64,000 nt of DNA from Eledone cirrhosa (Eukaryota). The stretch lies in the NCBI GenBank assembly GCA_964016885.1, contig OZ024741.1, positions 386,384,001 through 386,448,000 on the forward strand, in the 5' to 3' direction. Below, one piece after another: positions 6,770 through 63,579 of this stretch. The notes beneath the pieces are model-generated. The model saw nothing but the letters and a program-made list of their open reading frames with translations, was not told where the DNA came from and did not search any database. A program made the position numbers and the translations under genes. Within the stretch, counting starts at the first letter, position 1. Each line of letters begins with the position of its first letter.

Positions 6770-7002
6770 AACAACATAAGATAGTTATTTCATTTACCAG
6801 TGGTTTCTTGAAATAGGTTTTCAAATCCACATTTAATAAAAACACCAGGATTTTTTCATTCTGACGACTGAAAGCAGATTTGTTTGCTTTCAAGAAACCA
6901 CTGGTAAATGAAGTAATTATCTTATGTTGTTTATTACATAACTAATAAGCTCTGTAACCTACATAGAGCACTCTTTTTTCCTGGACCTTTCCGACGGAAT
7001 TA

Positions 7003-7617: not shown

Positions 7618-7678
7618 TTTCATTCTGATGACTGAAAGCAAATTTTGTTTGCTTTCAAGAAACCACTGGTAAATGAAA
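7618..7678 (+). ncRNA. Type I hammerhead ribozyme (second copy of the 6855 family)
   Basis: TTTCATT-CTGATGA-CTGAAAGCAAA..TTTGCTTTCAA-GAAA-CCACTGG-TA-AATGAAA. Confidence 0.82.
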
Positions 7679-8403: not shown

Positions 8404-10956
8404 TTGATTGGCAGCATGCTAACTAAAGACTACCTACCTATATCACTCAAGAACATCCCAACCCCATCCAGGACTACTTATGAGAAATTACTGATAGCTA
8501 GTGTCAACTCCTTCGTTAAGCGTATTAGATGGCGCACTTTCCACTTCGATAAGAGAAATAAGAAATCAACCACGGTGTCCCCCAATAATAAATTCGGTTT
8601 TAAAACCTATAGGAGCCCGCCCCATAACTCCATGCTAGAAGGATTTGAGAATGACCTCCTATCACTAGTAAGGGATATTAAGTTTAAAAACCCCATGGGA
8701 ATAGCAACAAATTCCGGATGAAACTGGAAACCTTAGTTAAGGGCTTTAACGATAAAAGAGATATCCTGGTCACCTCGGATAAAACCAGAAATATTTATAG
8801 CTTAAATTATGATACGTATCGCAGGTTTATATACAATGAATTAAATAGAAACTATAAAAAGACAACAAGCGCAAACCTAGATGAAATTAATAAGGAAGCA
8901 TGCGCCATAGTGGATAAACTAGGCCTGGAAAAGTATACCCAACCATATACCCCTAGGAAACCCAGGTTCACCCTTAAAGACCATAAGGCTGACTTCATTA
9001 GTAAACCCTCTGTTAGATTAATTAGCCCATCGAAGTCAGATATAGGGATTATCAGTAAGAACATTTTAGACGGCGTTATACCTACCATCAGGAGGAAAAT
9101 AAATCTAGAGCTATGGGAGAATACGGAAGAGGTTTTGAAATGGTTCTCAAGCCTTAGCAACCATAAATCCCTTAAATTTATACAATTCGACATCGATGCG
9201 TACTACGCCCCAATCTCCCCCATACTCCTTAATAAGGCCCTAATCATGGCCATGCAGAAAAGTGACCTCACTAGGTCCCAAATTGATGTCATTCTTGCGG
9301 CCCGGAAAACGATAATCACATTTGAGGACGAATTGTGGACCCGCAAGAATACGCCCAATAACTTCGACATCACAATGAGATCTAGTGACTCTGCACAAGT
9401 AACGGACCTGGTAGGATTGTACCTCTTAAAGAAGTTACATGAGACATTACCGCACCTGAAGGGCGGCTTATATCGTGATGACGCCCTCCTCACTCTCGAG
9501 TATAAAAAGTGCAATATAGAAAGAACTAGGAAACAGTTACGTAGGTTCTTTAAAAGCTTTAATCTAAGTATTACCATAGATGCAAATGACAAAACAGTAA
9601 ACTTCCTAGACGCCACCCTTGACTTAGAAACTAAAACATTTGCACCCTACCATAAACCTAATGATAGACTAACATATGTAAACGCCAGCTCCAACCACCC
9701 CAAATCAGTCCTAAACGCTATTCCCAGGGGGGTCTCTAATAGAATTATCAGACTGTCCTGTAATGAGAGTATCTTCAACTCCAATGCAGAGTATTATGAC
9801 AGGGCCCTAGCAGAATCTGGTTACGGGAATAGATTATCATATATACATAAGGACTCCCAAACCATGAGTGTGAAACCTACCAACATAATCACACACAGTA
9901 TGGCCACAAAGCCTAACCAACTTAGAGGCAAGAATAATAGTAAGAACCCTAATGGCGGTAACCCAGATAAATGTAAACCACGTAGAGACAATTCTAGAGT
10001 TCCTCACCACAACTCTAAAACAGCAAATGATCATGCCATGAATATAAACCATCTGGGCTTAAGCAAAACAGACAACGCCACTAACGTTAATAACGGAACC
10101 CTACAAAATAGTATGCACAGTAACGAGACTCACCCCACAGATAAGAAAAATAGAAGAAGGAAAAACATGTATTTTAACCCACCTTTTAACTCTGAGGTCC
10201 TCACTAACCTCCCCAGAGTATTCTTCTCATTATTAGAAAAAAACTTCCCACTAGGCAATAGATATCGCAACATTTTTAACAAAAACGTGATTAAATTATA
10301 CTATTCGACCACACCTAACCTCGCATCACACCTAGCACGCACGAACATTAGGAAAACTAGGGAAGGTTTCGAAGCAATTAAAATGGCAGTTAACCACCAG
10401 CAAACGACTACACTGGAAAATGGGCAACATAATAGCATCACTGAGCCATCTAATGATATAGAGGCACCTAGTGATAATGCTAGTAACCAAAGTTCGGGAG
10501 GTACGCTAACTGATCGAACCCGCAGTTGCAATTGTAGGCAGAGTAGTAATTGTCCCCTAAGGGGGGGCTTGCCTCATGAAAAACATCGTATATGCATGTG
10601 ACGTAACCACACACAACTCTACCAAAACATATATAGGATCAACGTCCAATACATTTAAAACTAGATTTAACGCGCATATATACAGATTTAGACACGGTAG
10701 ACATAAGAATGCCACCTCACTGGAGGGATACATCTCCTTTTTAAAAAATAATAGTACCCCATACAAACTTTTTTGGAAGAAGCTTACTAGATCCACGCCA
10801 TACCGACCGCAGAGCAGGAGTTGTGACCTGTGTTTACTGGAATGCCATGCCATAATACACTCTAAACTGAACCTGCTTAACAGGAAATCGGAAATTTTCT
10901 CCTCTTCCCAACACCAAATCCTGAGTTCCTTCTTCTATTTTAAACCTAGCACATAG
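8404..10956 (+). pseudogene. PLE reverse transcriptase + GIY-YIG endonuclease, two frameshifts (~8710, ~10570)
   Basis: Motifs FIQFDIDAYY, FDITMRSSDSAQVTDLVG, GLYRDDAL, VNFLDATLDL, YVNASSNHP; linker CNCRQSSNCPL; endonuclease IVYACDV…TYIGSTSNTFKTRFNAH…CDLCLLE…LLNRKSE. Confidence 0.88.
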
Positions 10957-35143: not shown

Positions 35144-35235
<92 letters not shown>

Positions 35236-35649
35236 TAAACGGACGGTAGTCCGTTTAGTAATATTGTTGTGGTCGTGTTTTCGTTGGCAATCGTCTGTTT
35301 ACGACAGTACAGCGCGGCTCTACTTTATTTAACTGAGATAAAACTTATATGAGCATGAACAGTAGATCATTACGCATCTTTTGGCTTAAAAATCTAGAAA
35401 TTTGGTCCAGCGGGAAAAAATTTATAATCAAAGTTTGCTGATAAATCTTGTGTTCAAGTGAGTGAGTAGTAAGCGTGACGCTAGGGGAGGTAATCCAGAA
35501 ATGACGTAGCTTTGTCATTAAACCAGTTGCCTCAACTAGATTGCAATTATATCCAGAAGAACTTTAAAATGTCAATCACTTGTCAGTAATTCACTATGAT
35601 CATTTAATTATTAGATAGTTGTTGCTTGCATTGCCTTAAAAAATAGTAG

Positions 35650-36744
35650 ACCAGATAGAAAAATGCGTACAGCAAAAAAAAGTAATATTGTTGGAATATA
35701 AACCTTTAAAAATACAGGACAAGAAACTAAAATAAAACTTTAAAAGAATAGGACAAGAAACTAAGATGAAACTTTAAAAGAATAGGACAAGAAACTAAGA
35801 TAAAACTTTAAAGAATTGGACAAGAAATAAAAAATTTTACAATAATATTAGTGGCAAATTTTTTTTATTCGTTTCCTATGCTATGCCCCAGTATCTTCTT
35901 GATAAGTGCACAATAATTGTCATGCTCTCATTGTGCGTTGCCCCTGAGCGGTTGGTTCTGGTTGGGGTTGGTTGGCTGAGCAGTTCTGCTCCGTCAGAAT
36001 GACCATTGCAAGAAGAATTGGCCGATGCAGCTGCATGTCTCCTCCAAGAATGCACTTCTGGTCCCGCAACACCAGACGAAGATGGAGAAGACGACCGGGA
36101 CAAGATGTCGACTCTGACCACCGACTACGGCGCCTCCCTCAACCACCGGTCCTCCCTCCCTCTGTCCCGTCATCCCTTCAGTCCTCCTGCTCCCCCTTCC
36201 TGTACCAGAAAGCTGTGGCACGCATTTATCTGGACTGCCGGACTTGAACCCAAGGACAAGATGCAAGGAGAAGATGGACGGGTTGGTCAAGATCAAGGAT
36301 GAGCGGGACGACAAGACCGTCCGCTGCTGCTCAAGATCTGTGCTCATGGGCCCATAGGTCCATTCACATTATGCATGACACATGAGGCGTGTCGCCGAAT
36401 GATGAAATAGGGGTATGGTTATGGCCCAATTGGTGTTCAAACCAAGATCAAATGATCCCCCCGGTCTGACGACGACCTCTGAATGTGGAACCCAGAGCCT
36501 ATGAATGTGGAACTCGATTTTTTACCAATAAAGATTTTGCCACTAATATTATTGTAAAATTTTTTATTTCTTGTCCAATTCTTTAAAGTTTTATCTTAGT
36601 TTCTTGTCCTATTCTTTTAAAGTTTTATCTTAGTTCCTTGTCCTATTCTTTTAAAGTTTTATTTTAGTTTCTTGTCCTGTATTTTTAAAGGTTTATATTC
36701 CAACAATATTACTTTTTTTTGCTGTACGCATTTTTCTATCTGGT
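35650..36744. repeat. ~210-bp inverted repeats with internal ~32-bp tandem units, enclosing a GC-rich segment
   Basis: 35650-35862 is the reverse complement of 36530-36744. Confidence 0.75.
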
Positions 36745-36750
36745 ATATAT

Positions 36751-36828
<78 letters not shown>

Positions 36829-49609: not shown

Positions 49610-49685
<76 letters not shown>

Positions 49686-49691
<6 letters not shown>

Positions 49692-50295
49692 TATGTATAC
49701 GTACATACATATATGTATACAGACGTACAGTAGTATGTATAATCATACATACATGCACACATATATATATGTACGTATGGATTTCCCGAACATTTATTAT
49801 AATGCTCGGTGTGTTTGTAAACAAACATCCCGAATTAAGCCGTAGTGTCTAGCAACCATCGTTGCTCTTTTGTTCAACACTGACAAAGGAACGATGTACT
49901 AGTTTCAAGCTTATTAACTATCGCCAGATGATTGAACGTCTGAAAGTATATACTTTCTTTATGCATATTAACGGCTGAGCAGCCTAATTTGCATATCGAG
50001 TGAGTTAATCGGCCGGGCGCACCGAAAACGATAAACGGAAAAAATGAAACGAAATTTCATTTCTCACTCTTAGTACGGCTGTTACTTAAATATAAGTATG
50101 TACAAACACACCGAGCATTATAATAAATGTTCGGTAAATCCATACGTACATATATATATATGTGCATGTATGTATATATATATATATATATATACATACT
50201 ACTGTACGTCTGTATACATATATGTATGTACGTATACATACTTATATTTAAGTAACAGCCGTACTAAGAGTGAGAAATGAAATTTCGTTTCATTT
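49686..50295. mobile_element. Decayed relative of the 41.5-kb retrozyme-like unit (~405 bp) with inverted partial copy
   Basis: Shares GGAACGATGTACTAGTTTCAAGCTT and GGCTGAGCAGCCTAATTTGCATATCGAGTGAGT. The unit wraps to its start at ~50090 and is inverted at 50100-50295. The HHR core is damaged (CTGGCGA, with stem I 5' strand deleted). Confidence 0.7.
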
Positions 50296-50555
50296 TTTCT
50301 CCTTTATATATATGTATGTTGCTTGTTTTTCTTCCCATCTTCGGTTAGCTTTTCCTTCTTGTTGTTTACTTGTCTCACTCGCTTTACGCGTTTCACTTGT
50401 CCCAATAGCTTATTTTAGTTATTGCTCGCACCAACCTGAGGTATATGATTTTTAATGCGATGAAATACCAATGATCGTTGGCAAATCACTGATGAGGGAC
50501 TAATTTTATAATATGTAATCCATGTGCAACCATGCAGTATTCTTCTCCCCATGTT

Positions 50556-53034: not shown

Positions 53035-53214
53035 AACAGAAATAACAAAGCAAACGACACAGTACAATGACGAAATATATATATATATATATATATAGTT
53101 AGATAGATAAGATGTTACTAATTAAGACTAATGAGACCATTTTTCAATTTAGTGCTCCATACTTAAGGAAAGTGGAGTGTAGATACTATCCGGTGAATTG
53201 ACACTATCGATAGA

Positions 53215-53410
53215 GCGGTGGGCAACATATTTTGCAACGTATAGTTACGACCTTTTACGTTCTGAGTTCAAATCAAGCCGAAGTTAGCTTTGCCTTTCAT
53301 CCTTACGTGGTCGATAATATAAAGTACCAGTAACGCACTAGGGTCGATTTAATCAACTTTCTTCTTCCCTTCAAATCTGTGGCCTTGTGCCAAACGTAGA
53401 AACAATTATT
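53215..53410 (+). mobile_element. Family A SINE whose 3' tail is the insertion site of the 469-bp array
   Basis: Core and tail GGCCTTGTGCCAAACGTAGAAACAATTATT. Confidence 0.75.
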
Positions 53411-53415
53411 ACAAT

Positions 53416-56400
53416 AAAAACAAATAACGAAACGAAATTAAATTTCGTTTCGTTTGTAACTCACTTTTGTATGACTGACGCTCAAACAATTAAGTCAAAG
53501 ATGTACATCCATATATGTATACTGAAATACTAGTATGTATATGAATACACACACGTATACATATGTAGATGTACCAAGTTTTTTTTCACTGATCACTTTA
53601 CTGTGAGTGGCCAGCTATTCTGTATGTAAACACACAGACAAACCGGTTTTTAGAGTCATACTGGTTTTTGAGGAAACACCTTTCCTCTATTCTCCAGAAA
53701 GCCAGACAAGGAATATTGAACTAGTTTCGTTGTTGTTACAACTCATCAGCAATATTTACCTATCTTCCGGCCTCTCTAGAGAATCGTAAAAGCACATATC
53801 GCTATATGCTTTTTCTATGAAAATTAGTAGTGGGCAGACCAACTTGCATAGAGTGTGAGTAAGTACCGGTTCAACGGAGACGATAAAAACAAATAACGAA
53901 ACGAAATTAAATTTCGTTTCGTTTGTAACTCACTTTTGTATGACTGACGCTCAAACAATTAAGTCAAAGATGTACATCCATATATGTATACTGAAATACT
54001 AGTATGTATATGAATACACACACGTATACATATGTAGATGTACCAAGTTTTTTTTCTCACTGATCACTTTACTGTGAGTGGCCAGCTATTCTGTATGTAA
54101 ACACACAGACAAACCGGTTTTTAGAGTCATACTGGTTTTTGAGGAAACACCTTTCCTCTATTCTCCAGAAAGCCAGACAAGGAATATTGAACTAGTTTCG
54201 TTGTTGTTACAACTCATCAGCAATATTTACCTATCTTCCGGCCTCTCTAGAGAATCGTAAAAGCACATATCGCTATATGCTTTTTCTATGAAAATTAGTA
54301 GTGGGCAGACCAACTTGCATAGAGTGTGAGTAAGTACCGGTTCAACGGAGACGATAAAAACAAATAACGAAACGAAATTAAATTTCGTTTCGTTTGTAAC
54401 TCACTTTTGTATGACTGACGCTCAAACAATTAAGTCAAAGATGTACATCCATATATGTATACTGAAATACTAGTATGTATATGAATACACACACGTATAC
54501 ATATGTAGATGTACCAAGTTTTTTTTCACTGATCACTTTACTGTGAGTGGCCAGCTATTCTGTATGTAAACACACAGACAAACCGGTTTTTAGAGTCATA
54601 CTGGTTTTTGAGGAAACACCTTTCCTCTATTCTCCAGAAAGCCAGACAAGGAATATTGAACTAGTTTCGTTGTTGTTACAACTCATCAGCAATATTTACC
54701 TATCTTCCGGCCTCTCTAGAGAATCGTAAAAGCACATATCGCTATATGCTTTTTCTATGAAAATTAGTAGTGGGCAGACCAACTTGCATAGAGTGTGAGT
54801 AAGTACCGGTTCAACGGAGACGATAAAAACAAATAACGAAACGAAATTAAATTTCGTTTCGTTTGTAACTCACTTTTGTATGACTGACGCTCAAACAATT
54901 AAGTCAAAGATGTACATCCATATATGTATACTGAAATACTAGTATGTATATGAATACACACACGTATACATATGTAGATGTACCAAGTTTTTTTTCACTG
55001 ATCACTTTACTGTGAGTGGCCAGCTATTCTGTATGTAAACACACAGACAAACCGGTTTTTAGAGTCATACTGGTTTTTGAGGAAACACCTTTCCTCTATT
55101 CTCCAGAAAGCCAGACAAGGAATATTGAACTAGTTTCGTTGTTGTTACAACTCATCAGCAATATTTACCTATCTTCCGGCCTCTCTAGAGAATCGTAAAA
55201 GCACATATCGCTATATGCTTTTTCTATGAAAATTAGTAGTGGGCAGACCAACTTGCATAGAGTGTGAGTAAGTACCGGTTCAACGGAGACGATAAAAACA
55301 AATAACGAAACGAAATTAAATTTCGTTTCGTTTGTAACTCACTTTTGTATGACTGACGCTCAAACAATTAAGTCAAAGATGTACATCCATATATGTATAC
55401 TGAAATACTAGTATGTATATGAATACACACACGTATACATATGTAGATGTACCAAGTTTTTTTTCACTGATCACTTTACTGTGAGTGGCCAGCTATTCTG
55501 TATGTAAACACACAGACAAACCGGTTTTTAGAGTCATACTGGTTTTTGAGGAAACACCTTTCCTCTATTCTCCAGAAAGCCAGACAAGGAATATTGAACT
55601 AGTTTCGTTGTTGTTACAACTCATCAGCAATATTTACCTATCTTCCGGCCTCTCTAGAGAATCGTAAAAGCACATATCGCTATATGCTTTTTCTATGAAA
55701 ATTAGTAGTGGGCAGACCAACTTGCATAGAGTGTGAGTAAGTACCGGTTCAACGGAGACGATAAAAACAAATAACGAAACGAAATTAAATTTCGTTTCGT
55801 TTGTAACTCACTTTTGTATGACTGACGCTCAAACAATTAAGTCAAAGATGTACATCCATATATGTATACTGAAATACTAGTATGTATATGAATACACACA
55901 CGTATACATATGTAGATGTACCAAGTTTTTTTTCACTGATCACTTTACTGTGAGTGGCCAGCTATTCTGTATGTAAACACACAGACAAACCGGTTTTTAG
56001 AGTCATACTGGTTTTTGAGGAAACACCTTTCCTCTATTCTCCAGAAAGCCAGACAAGGAATATTGAACTAGTTTCGTTGTTGTTACAACTCATCAGCAAT
56101 ATTTACCTATCTTCCGGCCTCTCTAGAGAATCGTAAAAGCACATATCGCTATATGCTTTTTCTATGAAAATTAGTAGTGGGCAGACCAACTTGCATAGAG
56201 TGTGAGTAAGTACCGGTTCAACGGAGACGATAAAAACAAATAACGAAACGAAATTAAATTTCGTTTCGTTTGTAACTCACTTTTGTATGACTGACGCTCA
56301 AACAATTAAGTCAAAGATGTACATCCATATATGTATACTGAAATACTAGTATGTATATGAATACACACACGTATACATATGTAGATGTACCAAGTTTTTT

Positions 56401-59400
56401 TTCACTGATCACTTTACTGTGAGTGGCCAGCTATTCTGTATGTAAACACACAGACAAACCGGTTTTTAGAGTCATACTGGTTTTTGAGGAAACACCTTTC
56501 CTCTATTCTCCAGAAAGCCAGACAAGGAATATTGAACTAGTTTCGTTGTTGTTACAACTCATCAGCAATATTTACCTATCTTCCGGCCTCTCTAGAGAAT
56601 CGTAAAAGCACATATCGCTATATGCTTTTTCTATGAAAATTAGTAGTGGGCAGACCAACTTGCATAGAGTGTGAGTAAGTACCGGTTCAACGGAGACGAT
56701 AAAAACAAATAACGAAACGAAATTAAATTTCGTTTCGTTTGTAACTCACTTTTGTATGACTGACGCTCAAACAATTAAGTCAAAGATGTACATCCATATA
56801 TGTATACTGAAATACTAGTATGTATATGAATACACACACGTATACATATGTAGATGTACCAAGTTTTTTTTCACTGATCACTTTACTGTGAGTGGCCAGC
56901 TATTCTGTATGTAAACACACAGACAAACCGGTTTTTAGAGTCATACTGGTTTTTGAGGAAACACCTTTCCTCTATTCTCCAGAAAGCCAGACAAGGAATA
57001 TTGAACTAGTTTCGTTGTTGTTACAACTCATCAGCAATATTTACCTATCTTCCGGCCTCTCTAGAGAATCGTAAAAGCACATATCGCTATATGCTTTTTC
57101 TATGAAAATTAGTAGTGGGCAGACCAACTTGCATAGAGTGTGAGTAAGTACCGGTTCAACGGAGACGATAAAAACAAATAACGAAACGAAATTAAATTTC
57201 GTTTCGTTTGTAACTCACTTTTGTATGACTGACGCTCAAACAATTAAGTCAAAGATGTACATCCATATATGTATACTGAAATACTAGTATGTATATGAAT
57301 ACACACACGTATACATATGTAGATGTACCAAGTTTTTTTTCACTGATCACTTTACTGTGAGTGGCCAGCTATTCTGTATGTAAACACACAGACAAACCGG
57401 TTTTTAGAGTCATACTGGTTTTTGAGGAAACACCTTTCCTCTATTCTCCAGAAAGCCAGACAAGGAATATTGAACTAGTTTCGTTGTTGTTACAACTCAT
57501 CAGCAATATTTACCTATCTTCCGGCCTCTCTAGAGAATCGTAAAAGCACATATCGCTATATGCTTTTTCTATGAAAATTAGTAGTGGGCAGACCAACTTG
57601 CATAGAGTGTGAGTAAGTACCGGTTCAACGGAGACGATAAAAACAAATAACGAAACGAAATTAAATTTCGTTTCGTTTGTAACTCACTTTTGTATGACTG
57701 ACGCTCAAACAATTAAGTCAAAGATGTACATCCATATATGTATACTGAAATACTAGTATGTATATGAATACACACACGTATACATATGTAGATGTACCAA
57801 GTTTTTTTTCACTGATCACTTTACTGTGAGTGGCCAGCTATTCTGTATGTAAACACACAGACAAACCGGTTTTTAGAGTCATACTGGTTTTTGAGGAAAC
57901 ACCTTTCCTCTATTCTCCAGAAAGCCAGACAAGGAATATTGAACTAGTTTCGTTGTTGTTACAACTCATCAGCAATATTTACCTATCTTCCGGCCTCTCT
58001 AGAGAATCGTAAAAGCACATATCGCTATATGCTTTTTCTATGAAAATTAGTAGTGGGCAGACCAACTTGCATAGAGTGTGAGTAAGTACCGGTTCAACGG
58101 AGACGATAAAAACAAATAACGAAACGAAATTAAATTTCGTTTCGTTTGTAACTCACTTTTGTATGACTGACGCTCAAACAATTAAGTCAAAGATGTACAT
58201 CCATATATGTATACTGAAATACTAGTATGTATATGAATACACACACGTATACATATGTAGATGTACCAAGTTTTTTTTCACTGATCACTTTACTGTGAGT
58301 GGCCAGCTATTCTGTATGTAAACACACAGACAAACCGGTTTTTAGAGTCATACTGGTTTTTGAGGAAACACCTTTCCTCTATTCTCCAGAAAGCCAGACA
58401 AGGAATATTGAACTAGTTTCGTTGTTGTTACAACTCATCAGCAATATTTACCTATCTTCCGGCCTCTCTAGAGAATCGTAAAAGCACATATCGCTATATG
58501 CTTTTTCTATGAAAATTAGTAGTGGGCAGACCAACTTGCATAGAGTGTGAGTAAGTACCGGTTCAACGGAGACGATAAAAACAAATAACGAAACGAAATT
58601 AAATTTCGTTTCGTTTGTAACTCACTTTTGTATGACTGACGCTCAAACAATTAAGTCAAAGATGTACATCCATATATGTATACTGAAATACTAGTATGTA
58701 TATGAATACACACACGTATACATATGTAGATGTACCAAGTTTTTTTCACTGATCACTTTACTGTGAGTGGCCAGCTATTCTGTATGTAAACACACAGACA
58801 AACCGGTTTTTAGAGTCATACTGGTTTTTGAGGAAACACCTTTCCTCTATTCTCCAGAAAGCCAGACAAGGAATATTGAACTAGTTTCGTTGTTGTTACA
58901 ACTCATCAGCAATATTTACCTATCTTCCGGCCTCTCTAGAGAATCGTAAAAGCACATATCGCTATATGCTTTTTCTATGAAAATTAGTAGTGGGCAGACC
59001 AACTTGCATAGAGTGTGAGTAAGTACCGGTTCAACGGAGACGATAAAAACAAATAACGAAACGAAATTAAATTTCGTTTCGTTTGTAACTCACTTTTGTA
59101 TGACTGACGCTCAAACAATTAAGTCAAAGATGTACATCCATATATGTATACTGAAATACTAGTATGTATATGAATACACACACGTATACATATGTAGATG
59201 TACCAAGTTTTTTTTCACTGATCACTTTACTGTGAGTGGCCAGCTATTCTGTATGTAAACACACAGACAAACCGGTTTTTAGAGTCATACTGGTTTTTGA
59301 GGAAACACCTTTCCTCTATTCTCCAGAAAGCCAGACAAGGAATATTGAACTAGTTTCGTTGTTGTTACAACTCATCAGCAATATTTACCTATCTTCCGGC

Positions 59401-59765
59401 CTCTCTAGAGAATCGTAAAAGCACATATCGCTATATGCTTTTTCTATGAAAATTAGTAGTGGGCAGACCAACTTGCATAGAGTGTGAGTAAGTACCGGTT
59501 CAACGGAGACGATAAAAACAAATAACGAAACGAAATTAAATTTCGTTTCGTTTGTAACTCACTTTTGTATGACTGACGCTCAAACAATTAAGTCAAAGAT
59601 GTACATCCATATATGTATACTGAAATACTAGTATGTATATGAATACACACACGTATACATATGTAGATGTACCAAGTTTTTTTTCACTGATCACTTTACT
59701 GTGAGTGGCCAGCTATTCTGTATGTAAACACACAGACAAACCGGTTTTTAGAGTCATACTGGTTT
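53416..59765 (-). repeat. Tandem array of a 469-bp HHR-bearing unit, ~13.5 copies (HHR sense on minus)
   Basis: Period is 469 bp (one 471, one 468), from the ORF track and direct reading. There are 13 HHRs, the first at 53712-53756. Confidence 0.95.
53712..53756 (-). ncRNA. Type I hammerhead ribozyme (one per array unit)
   Basis: Reverse complement reads AATATTG-CTGATGA-GTTG TAACAA CAAC-GAAA-CTAG-TT-CAATATT: 7-bp stem I, 4-bp stem II, palindromic ACTAGT stem III, GUU triplet. Confidence 0.85.
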
Positions 59766-59786
59766 GACTGGTTTTTAGAGTCATAC

Positions 59787-61671
59787 TTGTTTGAGCGTCA
59801 GTCATACAAAAGTGAGTTACAAACGAAACGAAATTTAATTTCGTTTCGTTATTTGTTTTTATCGTCTCCGTTGAACCGGTACTTACTCACACCCTATGCA
59901 AGTTGGTCTGCCCACTACTAATTTTCATAGAAAAAGCATATAGCGATATGTGCTTTTACGATTCTCTAGAGAGGCCGGAAGATAGGTAAATATTGCTGAT
60001 GAGTTGTAACAACAACGAAACTAGTTCAATATTCCTTGTCTGGCTTTCTGGAGAATAGAGGAAAGGTGTTTCCTCAAAAACCAGTATGACTCTAAAAACC
60101 GGTTTGTCTGTGTGTTTACATACAGAATAGCTGGCCACTCACAGTAAAGTGATCAGTGAGAAAAAAAACTTGGTACATCTACATATGTATACGTGTGTGT
60201 ATTCATATACATACTAGTATTTCAGTATACATATATGGATGTACATCTTTGACTTAATTGTTTGAGCGTCAGTCATACAAAAGTGAGTTACAAACGAAAC
60301 GAAATTTAATTTCGTTTCGTTATTTGTTTTTATCGTCTCCGTTGAACCGGTACTTACTCACACTCTATGCAAGTTGGTCTGCCCACTACTAATTTTCATA
60401 GAAAAAGCATATAGCGATATGTGCTTTTACGATTCTCTAGAGAGGCCGGAAGATAGGTAAATATTGCTGATGAGTTGTAACAACAACGAAACTAGTTCAA
60501 TATTCCTTGTCTGGCTTTCTGGAGAATAGAGGAAAGGTGTTTCCTCAAAAACCAGTATGACTCTAAAAACCGGTTTGTCTGTGTGTTTACATACAGAATA
60601 GCTGGCCACTCACAGTAAAGTGATCAGTGAAAAAAAACTTGGTACATCTACATATGTATACGTGTGTGTATTCATATACATACTAGTATTTCAGTATACA
60701 TATATGGATGTACATCTTTGACTTAATTGTTTGAGCGTCAGTCATACAAAAGTGAGTTACAAACGAAACGAAATTTAATTTCGTTTCGTTATTTGTTTTT
60801 ATCGTCTCCGTTGAACCGGTACTTACTCACACTCTATGCAAGTTGGTCTGCCCACTACTAATTTTCATAGAAAAAGCATATAGCGATATGTGCTTTTACG
60901 ATTCTCTAGAGAGGCCGGAAGATAGGTAAATATTGCTGATGAGTTGTAACAACAACGAAACTAGTTCAATATTCCTTGTCTGGCTTTCTGGAGAATAGAG
61001 GAAAGGTGTTTCCTCAAAAACCAGTATGACTCTAAAAACCGGTTTGTCTGTGTGTTTACATACAGAATAGCTGGCCACTCACAGTAAAGTGATCAGTGAA
61101 AAAAAACTTGGTACATCTACATATGTATACGTGTGTGTATTCATATACATACTAGTATTTCAGTATACATATATGGATGTACATCTTTGACTTAATTGTT
61201 TGAGCGTCAGTCATACAAAAGTGAGTTACAAACGAAACGAAATTTAATTTCGTTTCGTTATTTGTTTTTATCGTCTCCGTTGAACCGGTACTTACTCACA
61301 CTCTATGCAAGTTGGTCTGCCCACTACTAATTTTCATAGAAAAAGCATATAGCGATATGTGCTTTTACGATTCTCTAGAGAGGCCGGAAGATAGGTAAAT
61401 ATTGCTGATGAGTTGTAACAACAACGAAACTAGTTCAATATTCCTTGTCTGGCTTTCTGGAGAATAGAGGAAAGGTGTTTCCTCAAAAACCAGTATGACT
61501 CTAAAAACCGGTTTGTCTGTGTGTTTACATACAGAATAGCTGGCCACTCACAGTAAAGTGATCAGTGAAAAAAAAACTTGGTACATCTACATATGTATAC
61601 GTGTGTGTATTCATATACATACTAGTATTTCAGTATACATATATGGATGTACATCTTTGACTTAATTGTTT
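59787..61671 (+). repeat. Inverted arm of the array: 4 units, HHR sense on plus
   Basis: Reverse complement of the unit. HHRs at 59989-60033, ~60460-60504, ~60929-60973 and ~61398-61442. Confidence 0.95.
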
Positions 61672-62492
61672 AATTATTACAATGTCAAGCTTAAACTGTC
61701 GAGCATATATCTGTGAGAGAGAGAGAGAGGAGCTAAGTTAGCTTAAAGACAAGTTCAACCCCTACTGCACTGTCGAAAAATGTTCCAAAAATCTCGGATC
61801 AGATCAACCCTATCTTTTGCTTGCTTCTAATGATCTGAAAGCACTTCCCAAGGGAGTGAATGTGCCTGTATGGATGAGTGTATGTATGTGTATATATACG
61901 CACAGGCATTTATGTGTGCATATATGAATGTGCTTGTACCTGTGTGTATACTTTACCCACTCTCTCCACCTACTCATTTATTTGCACTCTAAAACCTTTC
62001 CTCACCCCATTCCTTCCATTCAAATAATAATTGATTCTTTTATTCATGAATTTCTATGTAAAACCTTCTAAAACTCCCCAGTATACTGTTGTGTGTGTTT
62101 GTGTGTATGCTGTGTGTATACACATAGTACATACACTTCACCACTGGTTACCAACCCATATAACCCACTTTGTATTGTTAATTCTTCACTTAAATACTCC
62201 TTCAGCCTATAAGCCCTATCTATAAATAGCCTTACCCCCCACCTTCTATTCCTATGACCATTATGCCCCTTCTTCTATTCCATTCCTATCTACTAACCAT
62301 CCCTACCCCATCATCACACACTGCTTGCTGACCCCTTGCCTGTCCAGATACACTTACCAGTGTCTGGCCTTCCACTTTCTCCATCCGACTAGTTTATTAC
62401 TATGATAAATTCAACCGAAACACTACCAAGACCAGTGACCTATTTTTTCACAACGTACAAATATTACTACACACTTGAAAAGGCTTGCTGGA

Positions 62493-62915
<423 letters not shown>

Positions 62916-63579
62916 TATATATAAATTTATATATATATATAAATTTTTGTACAGCATAGACGAAGCTCTAGTATACGGCCAAGCTAGCGTGTATGCTTAT
63001 TCGGTTTGTAGCTTTAGCACTCATATGAGGTAAGACCACAGAGTATAACATTATGTTCAGACAGCTTAGCAAATTAGATATAGCAGTCGGCAGTCCGACC
63101 GCATCACTAGAGCAACGAAAATACAGGACCCAGGTATGTATATATATATATATATGTATATATATATAAATTCAGCGAGAATCGTATTTCGGCGGATAGA
63201 AATAAGCGAAACGCAATTTCCGAGTCATGCTGGCAAGCGCTCCATGGACCAAAAGAGACCAGAGCAATAAACATAGGTTATAAAGGCCATACAAACTGAG
63301 AAGGCGGTTAAGAAGCTAACAACTACCTAAGCCAAAGAAACGAGGCAAGCTAAACGGGTCAAACAAAATAAATTAAATATTCACCCGGACCCCTGGGAAT
63401 GATGGTATGATCCAGTACAGGGGTTTTGCGACACCTAAATCAATAATACTGTCTGCTTAAAATAATAAGCTTTTGGTATAATGATCGAACAAGGTTGTCA
63501 CGTTATCAACAGGTATTTTGTTCTGTGCCAGCGTTATGGATATATATATATAATAGTAAAAGGTATAGTACCAGGAAAA

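Follow-up and report, generated by a model that had tools for sequence, protein, structure and literature searches.

Paired fixed start sites and inverted arms of a hammerhead retrozyme array in Eledone cirrhosa point to insertion by a Penelope-like element enzyme

Results

A 64-kb stretch of the Eledone cirrhosa genome (contig OZ024741.1, positions 386,384,001 to 386,448,000 of the forward strand; hereafter the window) contains an array of ~8.3 kb in which a ribozyme-bearing repeat forms two inward-facing arms between two copies of a 12-base target sequence. Our results indicate that this array is probably a non-LTR retrozyme (a retrozyme without long terminal repeats) that was inserted in one event by the enzyme of a Penelope-like element (PLE), with priming from both target ends at two fixed sites of the unit, A and B, and with copying that probably ran round a 469-nt circle. 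Priming of both strands in the PLE manner is, in our judgement, very likely. The initial annotation had already proposed a single insertion event, and this proposal is upheld by a genuine target-site duplication (TSD) and by two arms that read as cDNA primed from the two target ends.

A two-armed array between target-site duplications

Tandem Repeats Finder recovered two blocks of the 469-bp repeat that are reverse complements of each other, one at 53414-59765 (13.5 copies) and one at 59787-61671 (4.0 copies). RNA sense runs along the minus strand in arm A and along the plus strand in arm B. The parts of the array are as follows.

53206-53415, plus strand: SINE-like (short interspersed element) dispersed repeat whose AT-rich tail is the target site, with many 78-89% identical copies elsewhere in the window
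53404-53415, plus strand: left copy of the 12-bp TSD, of which the final 2 nt (AT) are also found in the unit at site A
53416-59765, minus strand: arm A, a tandem run of 13.5 retrozyme units of 469 bp that begins at the tail-bearing end, fixed site A
53416-53483, minus strand: "tail" of the first unit, ~70 nt that separate start sites A and B and include a perfect hairpin at 53426-53454
53499-53574, minus strand: predicted long hairpin, immediately 5' of start site B when read in RNA sense
53696-53767, minus strand: minimal type I hammerhead of the first unit, one per unit, with palindromic stem III
59766-59786, no strand assigned: 21-nt insert at the inner junction, copied from the arm A end, an end-joining scar
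59787-61671, plus strand: arm B, an inverted run of 4.0 units that begins on the right, at fixed site B, and has no tail
61672-61683, plus strand: right copy of the 12-bp TSD

The 12-mer AATTATTACAAT was found at 53404-53415 and 61672-61683, with no third occurrence on either strand of the window, and the match cannot be extended on either side. From base composition, the chance of such a flanking match is 5e-7 per position, or 5e-5 when 100-fold slack in the boundaries is allowed. The left copy is the tail of a dispersed repeat (53206-53415), putatively a SINE, with many further copies in the window. The near-identity of the units, also part of the initial annotation, was confirmed: 13 of the 16 complete units are the same, and the other three differ by indels in T-runs and one substitution. 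Its division into 13.5 units collinear with the hammerhead sense and 4 inverted units holds in the assembly as well, and the assignment of these portions to the 3' and 5' sides is right because the hammerhead lies on the minus strand of the first arm. An assembly artefact was considered and rejected, given the unique flanks, the TSDs and the same layout in diverged old copies. Reads of four sequencing runs were examined at the left end of the array, and none of them joins the flanks across an empty site.

At 53400-53408, a 9-nt match links the top strand of the target to the unit at start site B, but it falls on the strand that would have primed arm A. At another locus, L043, target and unit share 8 nt on the priming strand. 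These matches may reflect either chance or RNA-assisted targeting at sites that are not (TA)n.

Arms start at two fixed sites throughout the family

A search of the 3.0-Gb genome with the unit gave at least 318 matches, and 37 other loci, taken from 150 matches listed, were examined. Together with the window these formed a young set of 38 loci, 28 two-armed and 10 single-armed. Across loci, one arm starts at site A (unit phase 468/1) and the other ~70 nt away, at site B (phase 69-78). All 28 two-armed loci are convergent. The A+B pairing was called by script in 25 of them and on inspection of the flanks in two more (L054 and L065), while in the last one the B end falls in an assembly gap; thus, every resolvable two-armed locus (27/27) combines A with B, and A+A or B+B was never seen. 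Single-armed loci start at A in six cases and at B in four. The outer ends of the window array lie at these same family-wide sites (phase 468/1 and phase 69-73), and its inner ends alone are arbitrary.

The hairpin pattern of the A end has 2526 exact matches genome-wide. A second sample of 40 stretches was chosen on an A end alone, from the first matches listed. The second arm started at B in 22 of these (plus one duplicated locus), elsewhere in two and at A in none; 14 were single-armed and one gave no match. Copies at 85-96% identity keep the same ends and the same A/B rule. The recurrence of these starts across loci shows that the initial annotation was wrong to let the array begin at an arbitrary phase of the unit, and the circularly permuted start points that it anticipated at other insertions gave way to starts fixed at A or B. 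It had also named fixed ends without TSDs as an observation that would speak against insertion; the ends are indeed fixed, but the TSDs are present.

Both arms are antisense to the ribozyme strand and point inward, as would be expected if a staggered cut had supplied two 3' ends, each of which primed cDNA.

Target sites and inner junctions

Most flanks consist of (TA)n, the AT-rich type of target looked for in a non-autonomous element mobilized by a PLE, and the TSD is therefore mostly unreadable. We counted as informative a duplication of at least 10 nt with at least three breaks of the (AT)n pattern. By this measure, TSDs, most of them 12-16 nt, occur in 9 of 45 true flank pairs versus 6 of 1980 mismatched pairs, so that the duplications expected at other insertions were recovered.

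The inner ends, in contrast to the outer ones, are spread evenly over the unit (124 ends). Among 26 young junctions, 22 have no insert and four carry inserts of 4-21 nt. Microhomology of at least 1 nt is found at 18 of the 22 insert-free junctions, with a mean of 1.7 nt versus 0.73 nt in simulations. The end of arm A is unrelated to the start of arm B, with offsets from -219 to +181 nt at 26 loci, and the arm lengths of two-armed loci, which range from 0.1 to about 17 units, are uncorrelated.

Elsewhere in the window (35145-36825), an inverted pair of 34-bp tandem blocks lies between (TA)n tracts and is possibly another two-armed insertion of the PLE type.

The unit fits a non-LTR retrozyme

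The 469-bp unit has a GC content of 0.36, and the array holds no open reading frame (ORF) of at least 150 aa; the reverse transcriptase (RT) plus GIY-YIG frame of an autonomous PLE is thus absent from it. Seventeen hammerhead motif matches were found in the array. On the strand opposite to arm A, every unit has a minimal type I hammerhead with a 7-bp stem I, a 5-bp stem II and a palindromic stem III, and the cut is predicted between phases 303 and 304. The Rfam model HH9 matches the unit with an E-value of 9e-8 and 37.7 bits, under the gathering score of 52; accordingly, a scan of the window at the gathering threshold gave no hammerhead, and only the E-value search recovered one. In older copies, stem II has a compensatory change and the cut site has C in place of U. 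The RNA strand is predicted to fold much better than shuffled sequences (z-score -11.7). With one hammerhead per tandem unit, a short, non-coding, low-GC unit without LTRs and dispersed copies with TSDs of more than 4 bp, the sequence of the unit fits a non-LTR retrozyme.

Related elements were seen as well. Many long two-armed arrays belong to a further young subfamily, in which the spacing is 465 bp (e.g. G000:C3:205538995-205548087). A sister retrozyme family, ~70-79% identical over parts of the unit and with the same hammerhead stem III, is present in the window at 49680-50310, where a two-armed copy lies in (TA)n with a B-type start at left and an A-type hairpin end at right; further copies occur in L208, L219, L220 and L233. 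Two more hammerhead motifs lie on the plus strand of the window at 6855-6910 and 7619-7675, near a PLE-like RT frame at 8688-10601.

A young PLE family follows the same end rule

A protein search of the same genome revealed a young PLE family with many 775-aa open frames that contain RT and GIY-YIG motifs; judged by its CxxxxCxxC linker, it is presumably Neptune-like. In 12 stretches, all nine simple two-armed copies combine one end that bears a 63-nt tail with one tail-less end and lie inside (TA)n; of the other three, two show one end and one is complex. This pairing of tail and no tail is the same rule as the A+B pairing of the retrozyme, whose loci likewise show an inverted second arm and a one-sided tail, the signs looked for in an element mobilized by a PLE. 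The initial annotation had named a LINE (long interspersed element) or PLE RT as the enzyme. The pairing and the (TA)n targets support the PLE half of this suggestion, and the features point away from a LINE.

Similar observations have been published for PLEs. An inverted arm and a tail at one end are known for PLEs (PMC8557442, PMC3846280), and in vitro the anole PLE cut and extended both strands, preferred AT-rich DNA and used two internal start sites that bound the tail (PMC11167929). The available text of PMC7761336 states that retrozyme repeats show no motif identifying their helper; the A and B ends described here, unlike that statement, do identify the helper type. Li et al. 2026 (bioRxiv 10.64898/2026.07.22.740005) tied retrozymes to the pseudo-LTRs (pLTRs) of PLEs by homology.

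Retrozyme copies that adjoin PLEs (L108, L161, L219) were considered as a link to a partner and rejected, as they are mere insertions into the (TA)n flanks of PLEs. In the hammerhead of the intact 775-aa PLE family (L101:7400-7450, L220), the core pair is U3-A8, where C3-G8 is usual. A probable decayed PLE 3' end lies 300 bp to the right of the array, at 61990-62940 of the window; it contains a hammerhead-like motif and an inverted repeat that flanks (CT)n(TA)n(AG)n.

Locus-private haplotypes and the form of the template

Of the 28 two-armed loci, 7 carry a substitution that every unit of both arms shares, as do 7 of 14 further stretches. At one 15-kb locus, the 137+264 haplotype is carried by all 33 units (16 + 17) and by no other array in the assembly; 264C>T was found elsewhere in six matches, all single units at loci without 137C>A. 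The 137+183+234 haplotype is fixed at one other locus only. Single variants were less useful: 137C>A alone was rejected as a private marker, since it is present at three loci, each with a different fixed variant set, and only the combined haplotypes are private. Likewise rejected were 234T>C alone, which is common in the 465-bp subfamily, and a 2-nt insertion shared by one unit in each arm of the window array, which recurs at other loci. The arms cross the ribozyme cut site without a scar (256 intact 26-mers span it), and no clear pile-up at this site was seen among 124 arm ends.

With no source array in the assembly, the simplest reading is a monomer template copied many times, and the usual template is likely to have been a monomer circle. 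Reverse transcription round a circle to cDNA of more than unit length was already proposed as the likeliest pathway (PMC7761336), and the rolling reverse transcription suggested in the initial annotation is favored by locus-private haplotypes that are fixed across both arms. Its companion claim, that the array was not built by unequal crossing-over, stands for the young window locus and fails for the family as a whole, in which an older 30.5-unit arm carries nested shared variants, as is typical of later unequal exchange.

Several observations weigh against the proposed insertion by a PLE enzyme on a circle. Of 124 arm ends, 5 lie within 3 nt of phase 304 where 1.85 would be expected (p 0.04), an excess that loses significance when the distance is set to 5 or 10 nt; this hints weakly at cleaved linear templates. 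The window array carries the commonest haplotype and therefore gives no private template marker. At L063, arm A includes five units of a subfamily defined by 15 single-nucleotide polymorphisms (SNPs) and arm B is of the common type; at L041, the first A unit is without the variant of its locus; at L040, L042 and one C4 locus, a variant is present in only some units of both arms; and period-2 patterns occur at four loci, L037, L055 and L065 among them. Source arrays could also be missing from the assembly. No PLE with sequence or end similarity to the unit was found in 92 stretches (30 + 12 + 50), a small sample of more than 10,000 candidates. Finally, the RNA used by the anole PLE in vitro was linear and uncleaved, and the two strands showed no difference in start sites (PMC11167929).

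Arm A of L063 (L063:1544-5672) runs from the five 15-SNP units through a 22-nt deletion to the common type, and a template switch between two RNAs is possible there.

Words of the unit occur in sequencing runs of 16 differently coded organisms (runs X1-X20). Depth of the family is very high in X1, with a mostly divergent haplotype, and 10-17 in X4 and X5, together with the SINE; X21 has none. Given this pattern, with the SINE included, contamination or diet is as likely as horizontal transfer.

Discussion

Alternative explanations

The form of the template bears most directly on an alternative that keeps PLE priming on two strands and replaces the circle by a long uncleaved linear array transcript or by mixed multimers. 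The anole PLE worked mainly on uncleaved RNA in vitro (PMC11167929), minimal hammerheads cut poorly as monomers (PMC7229834), eight of nine Xenopus dimers were uncleaved (bioRxiv 10.64898/2026.07.22.740005), and the mixed-unit loci L063, L041, L040 and L042 would follow readily. However, the haplotype fixed in 33/33 units has no source array in the assembly; many loci have a fixed variant set of their own, and copying of truncated arrays would be expected to shorten the arms in each generation. We therefore consider this explanation unlikely. It appears very unlikely that the insertion was at first a short, two-armed seed of the PLE type whose inverted arms lengthened later by unequal crossing-over, with gene conversion acting between them. 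Local amplification by unequal crossover was proposed by Li et al. 2026 (bioRxiv 10.64898/2026.07.22.740005), and the nested variants of the older 30.5-unit arm and the period-2 patterns are of the kind that it would produce. Young arrays of 8-33 units, however, show no partly spread substitutions (e.g. 0 in 33 and 20 units), so that both arms would need to have expanded before any mutation, and the window array has one substitution in 16 complete units.

Two further explanations concern the inverted arm. It might have arisen by self-priming, as a fold-back copy of the first arm; such an origin has been proposed for the Penelope elements of rotifers, and palindromes occur at the inverted junctions of Adineta PLEs (PMC3846280). 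L037 is joined at a hairpin centre, and both inner ends lie within 12 nt of each other in 4 of 26 loci; yet the offsets of the inner ends span the whole unit, shared variants are not at mirror distances from the junction at the two loci tested, and a second arm that ends at the complementary fixed site is left unexplained. Self-priming is thus already largely refuted, and we regard it as highly improbable. Twin priming by L1 involves a first cDNA that starts at poly(A) and a second primer that anneals internally, close to where this first cDNA ends. A TSD with a 5' inversion is a known signature of this process, and the resemblance extends to two oppositely oriented cDNA arms joined by microhomology; LINE fragments are also present in the window. 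An L1-type insertion is nevertheless hardly conceivable here. There is no poly(A) at either end of the array, both starts are fixed sites flanked by structure, the second start is unrelated to the stop of the first arm (with uniform offsets), and the (TA)n targets and tail/no-tail pairing match a PLE of the same genome. The initial annotation had read the TSD and 5' inversion as this type of twin priming, which the fixed second start contradicts.

Proposed mechanism

Insertion by a PLE enzyme on a circular template would proceed as follows. Array transcripts would self-cleave at the hammerhead and then be ligated into monomer circles. The GIY-YIG endonuclease of a PLE would make a staggered break (~12 bp) in AT-rich DNA and expose two 3' overhangs. 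One overhang would prime cDNA at site A and the other at site B, never twice at the same site, in keeping with the pairing seen in the genome. The growing arms, up to ~17 units at observed loci, would pass the cut site without a scar and end at random phase, and the cDNA ends would be joined head to head through short microhomology or a templated insert, as the junctions show. Fill-in would then generate the TSD. A more specific arrangement, in which a PLE dimer engages one 469-nt circular RNA at the two fixed sites and rolls up to ~17 turns per arm, seems to us evenly balanced between right and wrong. If it is true, the inverted arm and one-sided tail of all PLEs would be the obligatory result of asymmetric two-strand priming, and ribozyme circles would be real transposition intermediates in the animal germ line.

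These results bear on how retrozyme arrays spread, for which rolling reverse transcription has been proposed and unequal crossover also argued, and on why PLEs have inverted arms and a one-sided tail. The family offers ~2500 insertions with mappable starts and clonal markers that tell circle from concatemer, and young intact PLE candidates are present in the same genome. For the in vitro PLE assay that already exists, it defines a 469-nt substrate and predicts exactly where cDNA should start, and it also shows a single-step route to satellite-like palindromes of 8-15 kb.

Comparison with known retrozymes and PLEs

The element is of a known kind, and its integration anatomy is newly documented here. 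The main texts searched gave no description of retrozyme insertions in which two arms have paired, fixed starts, nor of clonal haplotypes that extend across arms, and a text search of the available parts of PMC7229834 and bioRxiv 10.64898/2026.07.22.740005 did not find inverted arms or fixed ends. Metazoan non-LTR retrozymes were described by Cervera and de la Pena 2020 (PMC7229834), in a review (PMC7761336) and by Li et al. 2026 (bioRxiv 10.64898/2026.07.22.740005). Like the unit of the window, they are non-coding tandem repeats with a GC content below 45% and one type I hammerhead per unit; like its family, they form dispersed arrays with TSDs of more than 4 bp and co-occur with PLEs. At 469 bp, the unit is slightly over the 150-450 bp quoted for them.

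Unlike PLEs, the retrozyme has no ORF, its arms are tandems of many units, and its sequence matches none of the PLE ends examined; its tail is ~70 nt, compared with 30-40 nt in published PLEs and 63 nt in the 775-aa PLE of this genome. PLEs with inverted pLTRs, in which the tail is optional (PMC3846280, PMC8557442, PMC11167929), nevertheless share with it an inverted, 5'-truncated second arm with a tail at one end only, TSDs of ~8-16 bp in (TA)n or AT-rich targets, and two internal RT start sites, together with an extension of both strands that was seen for a PLE in vitro.

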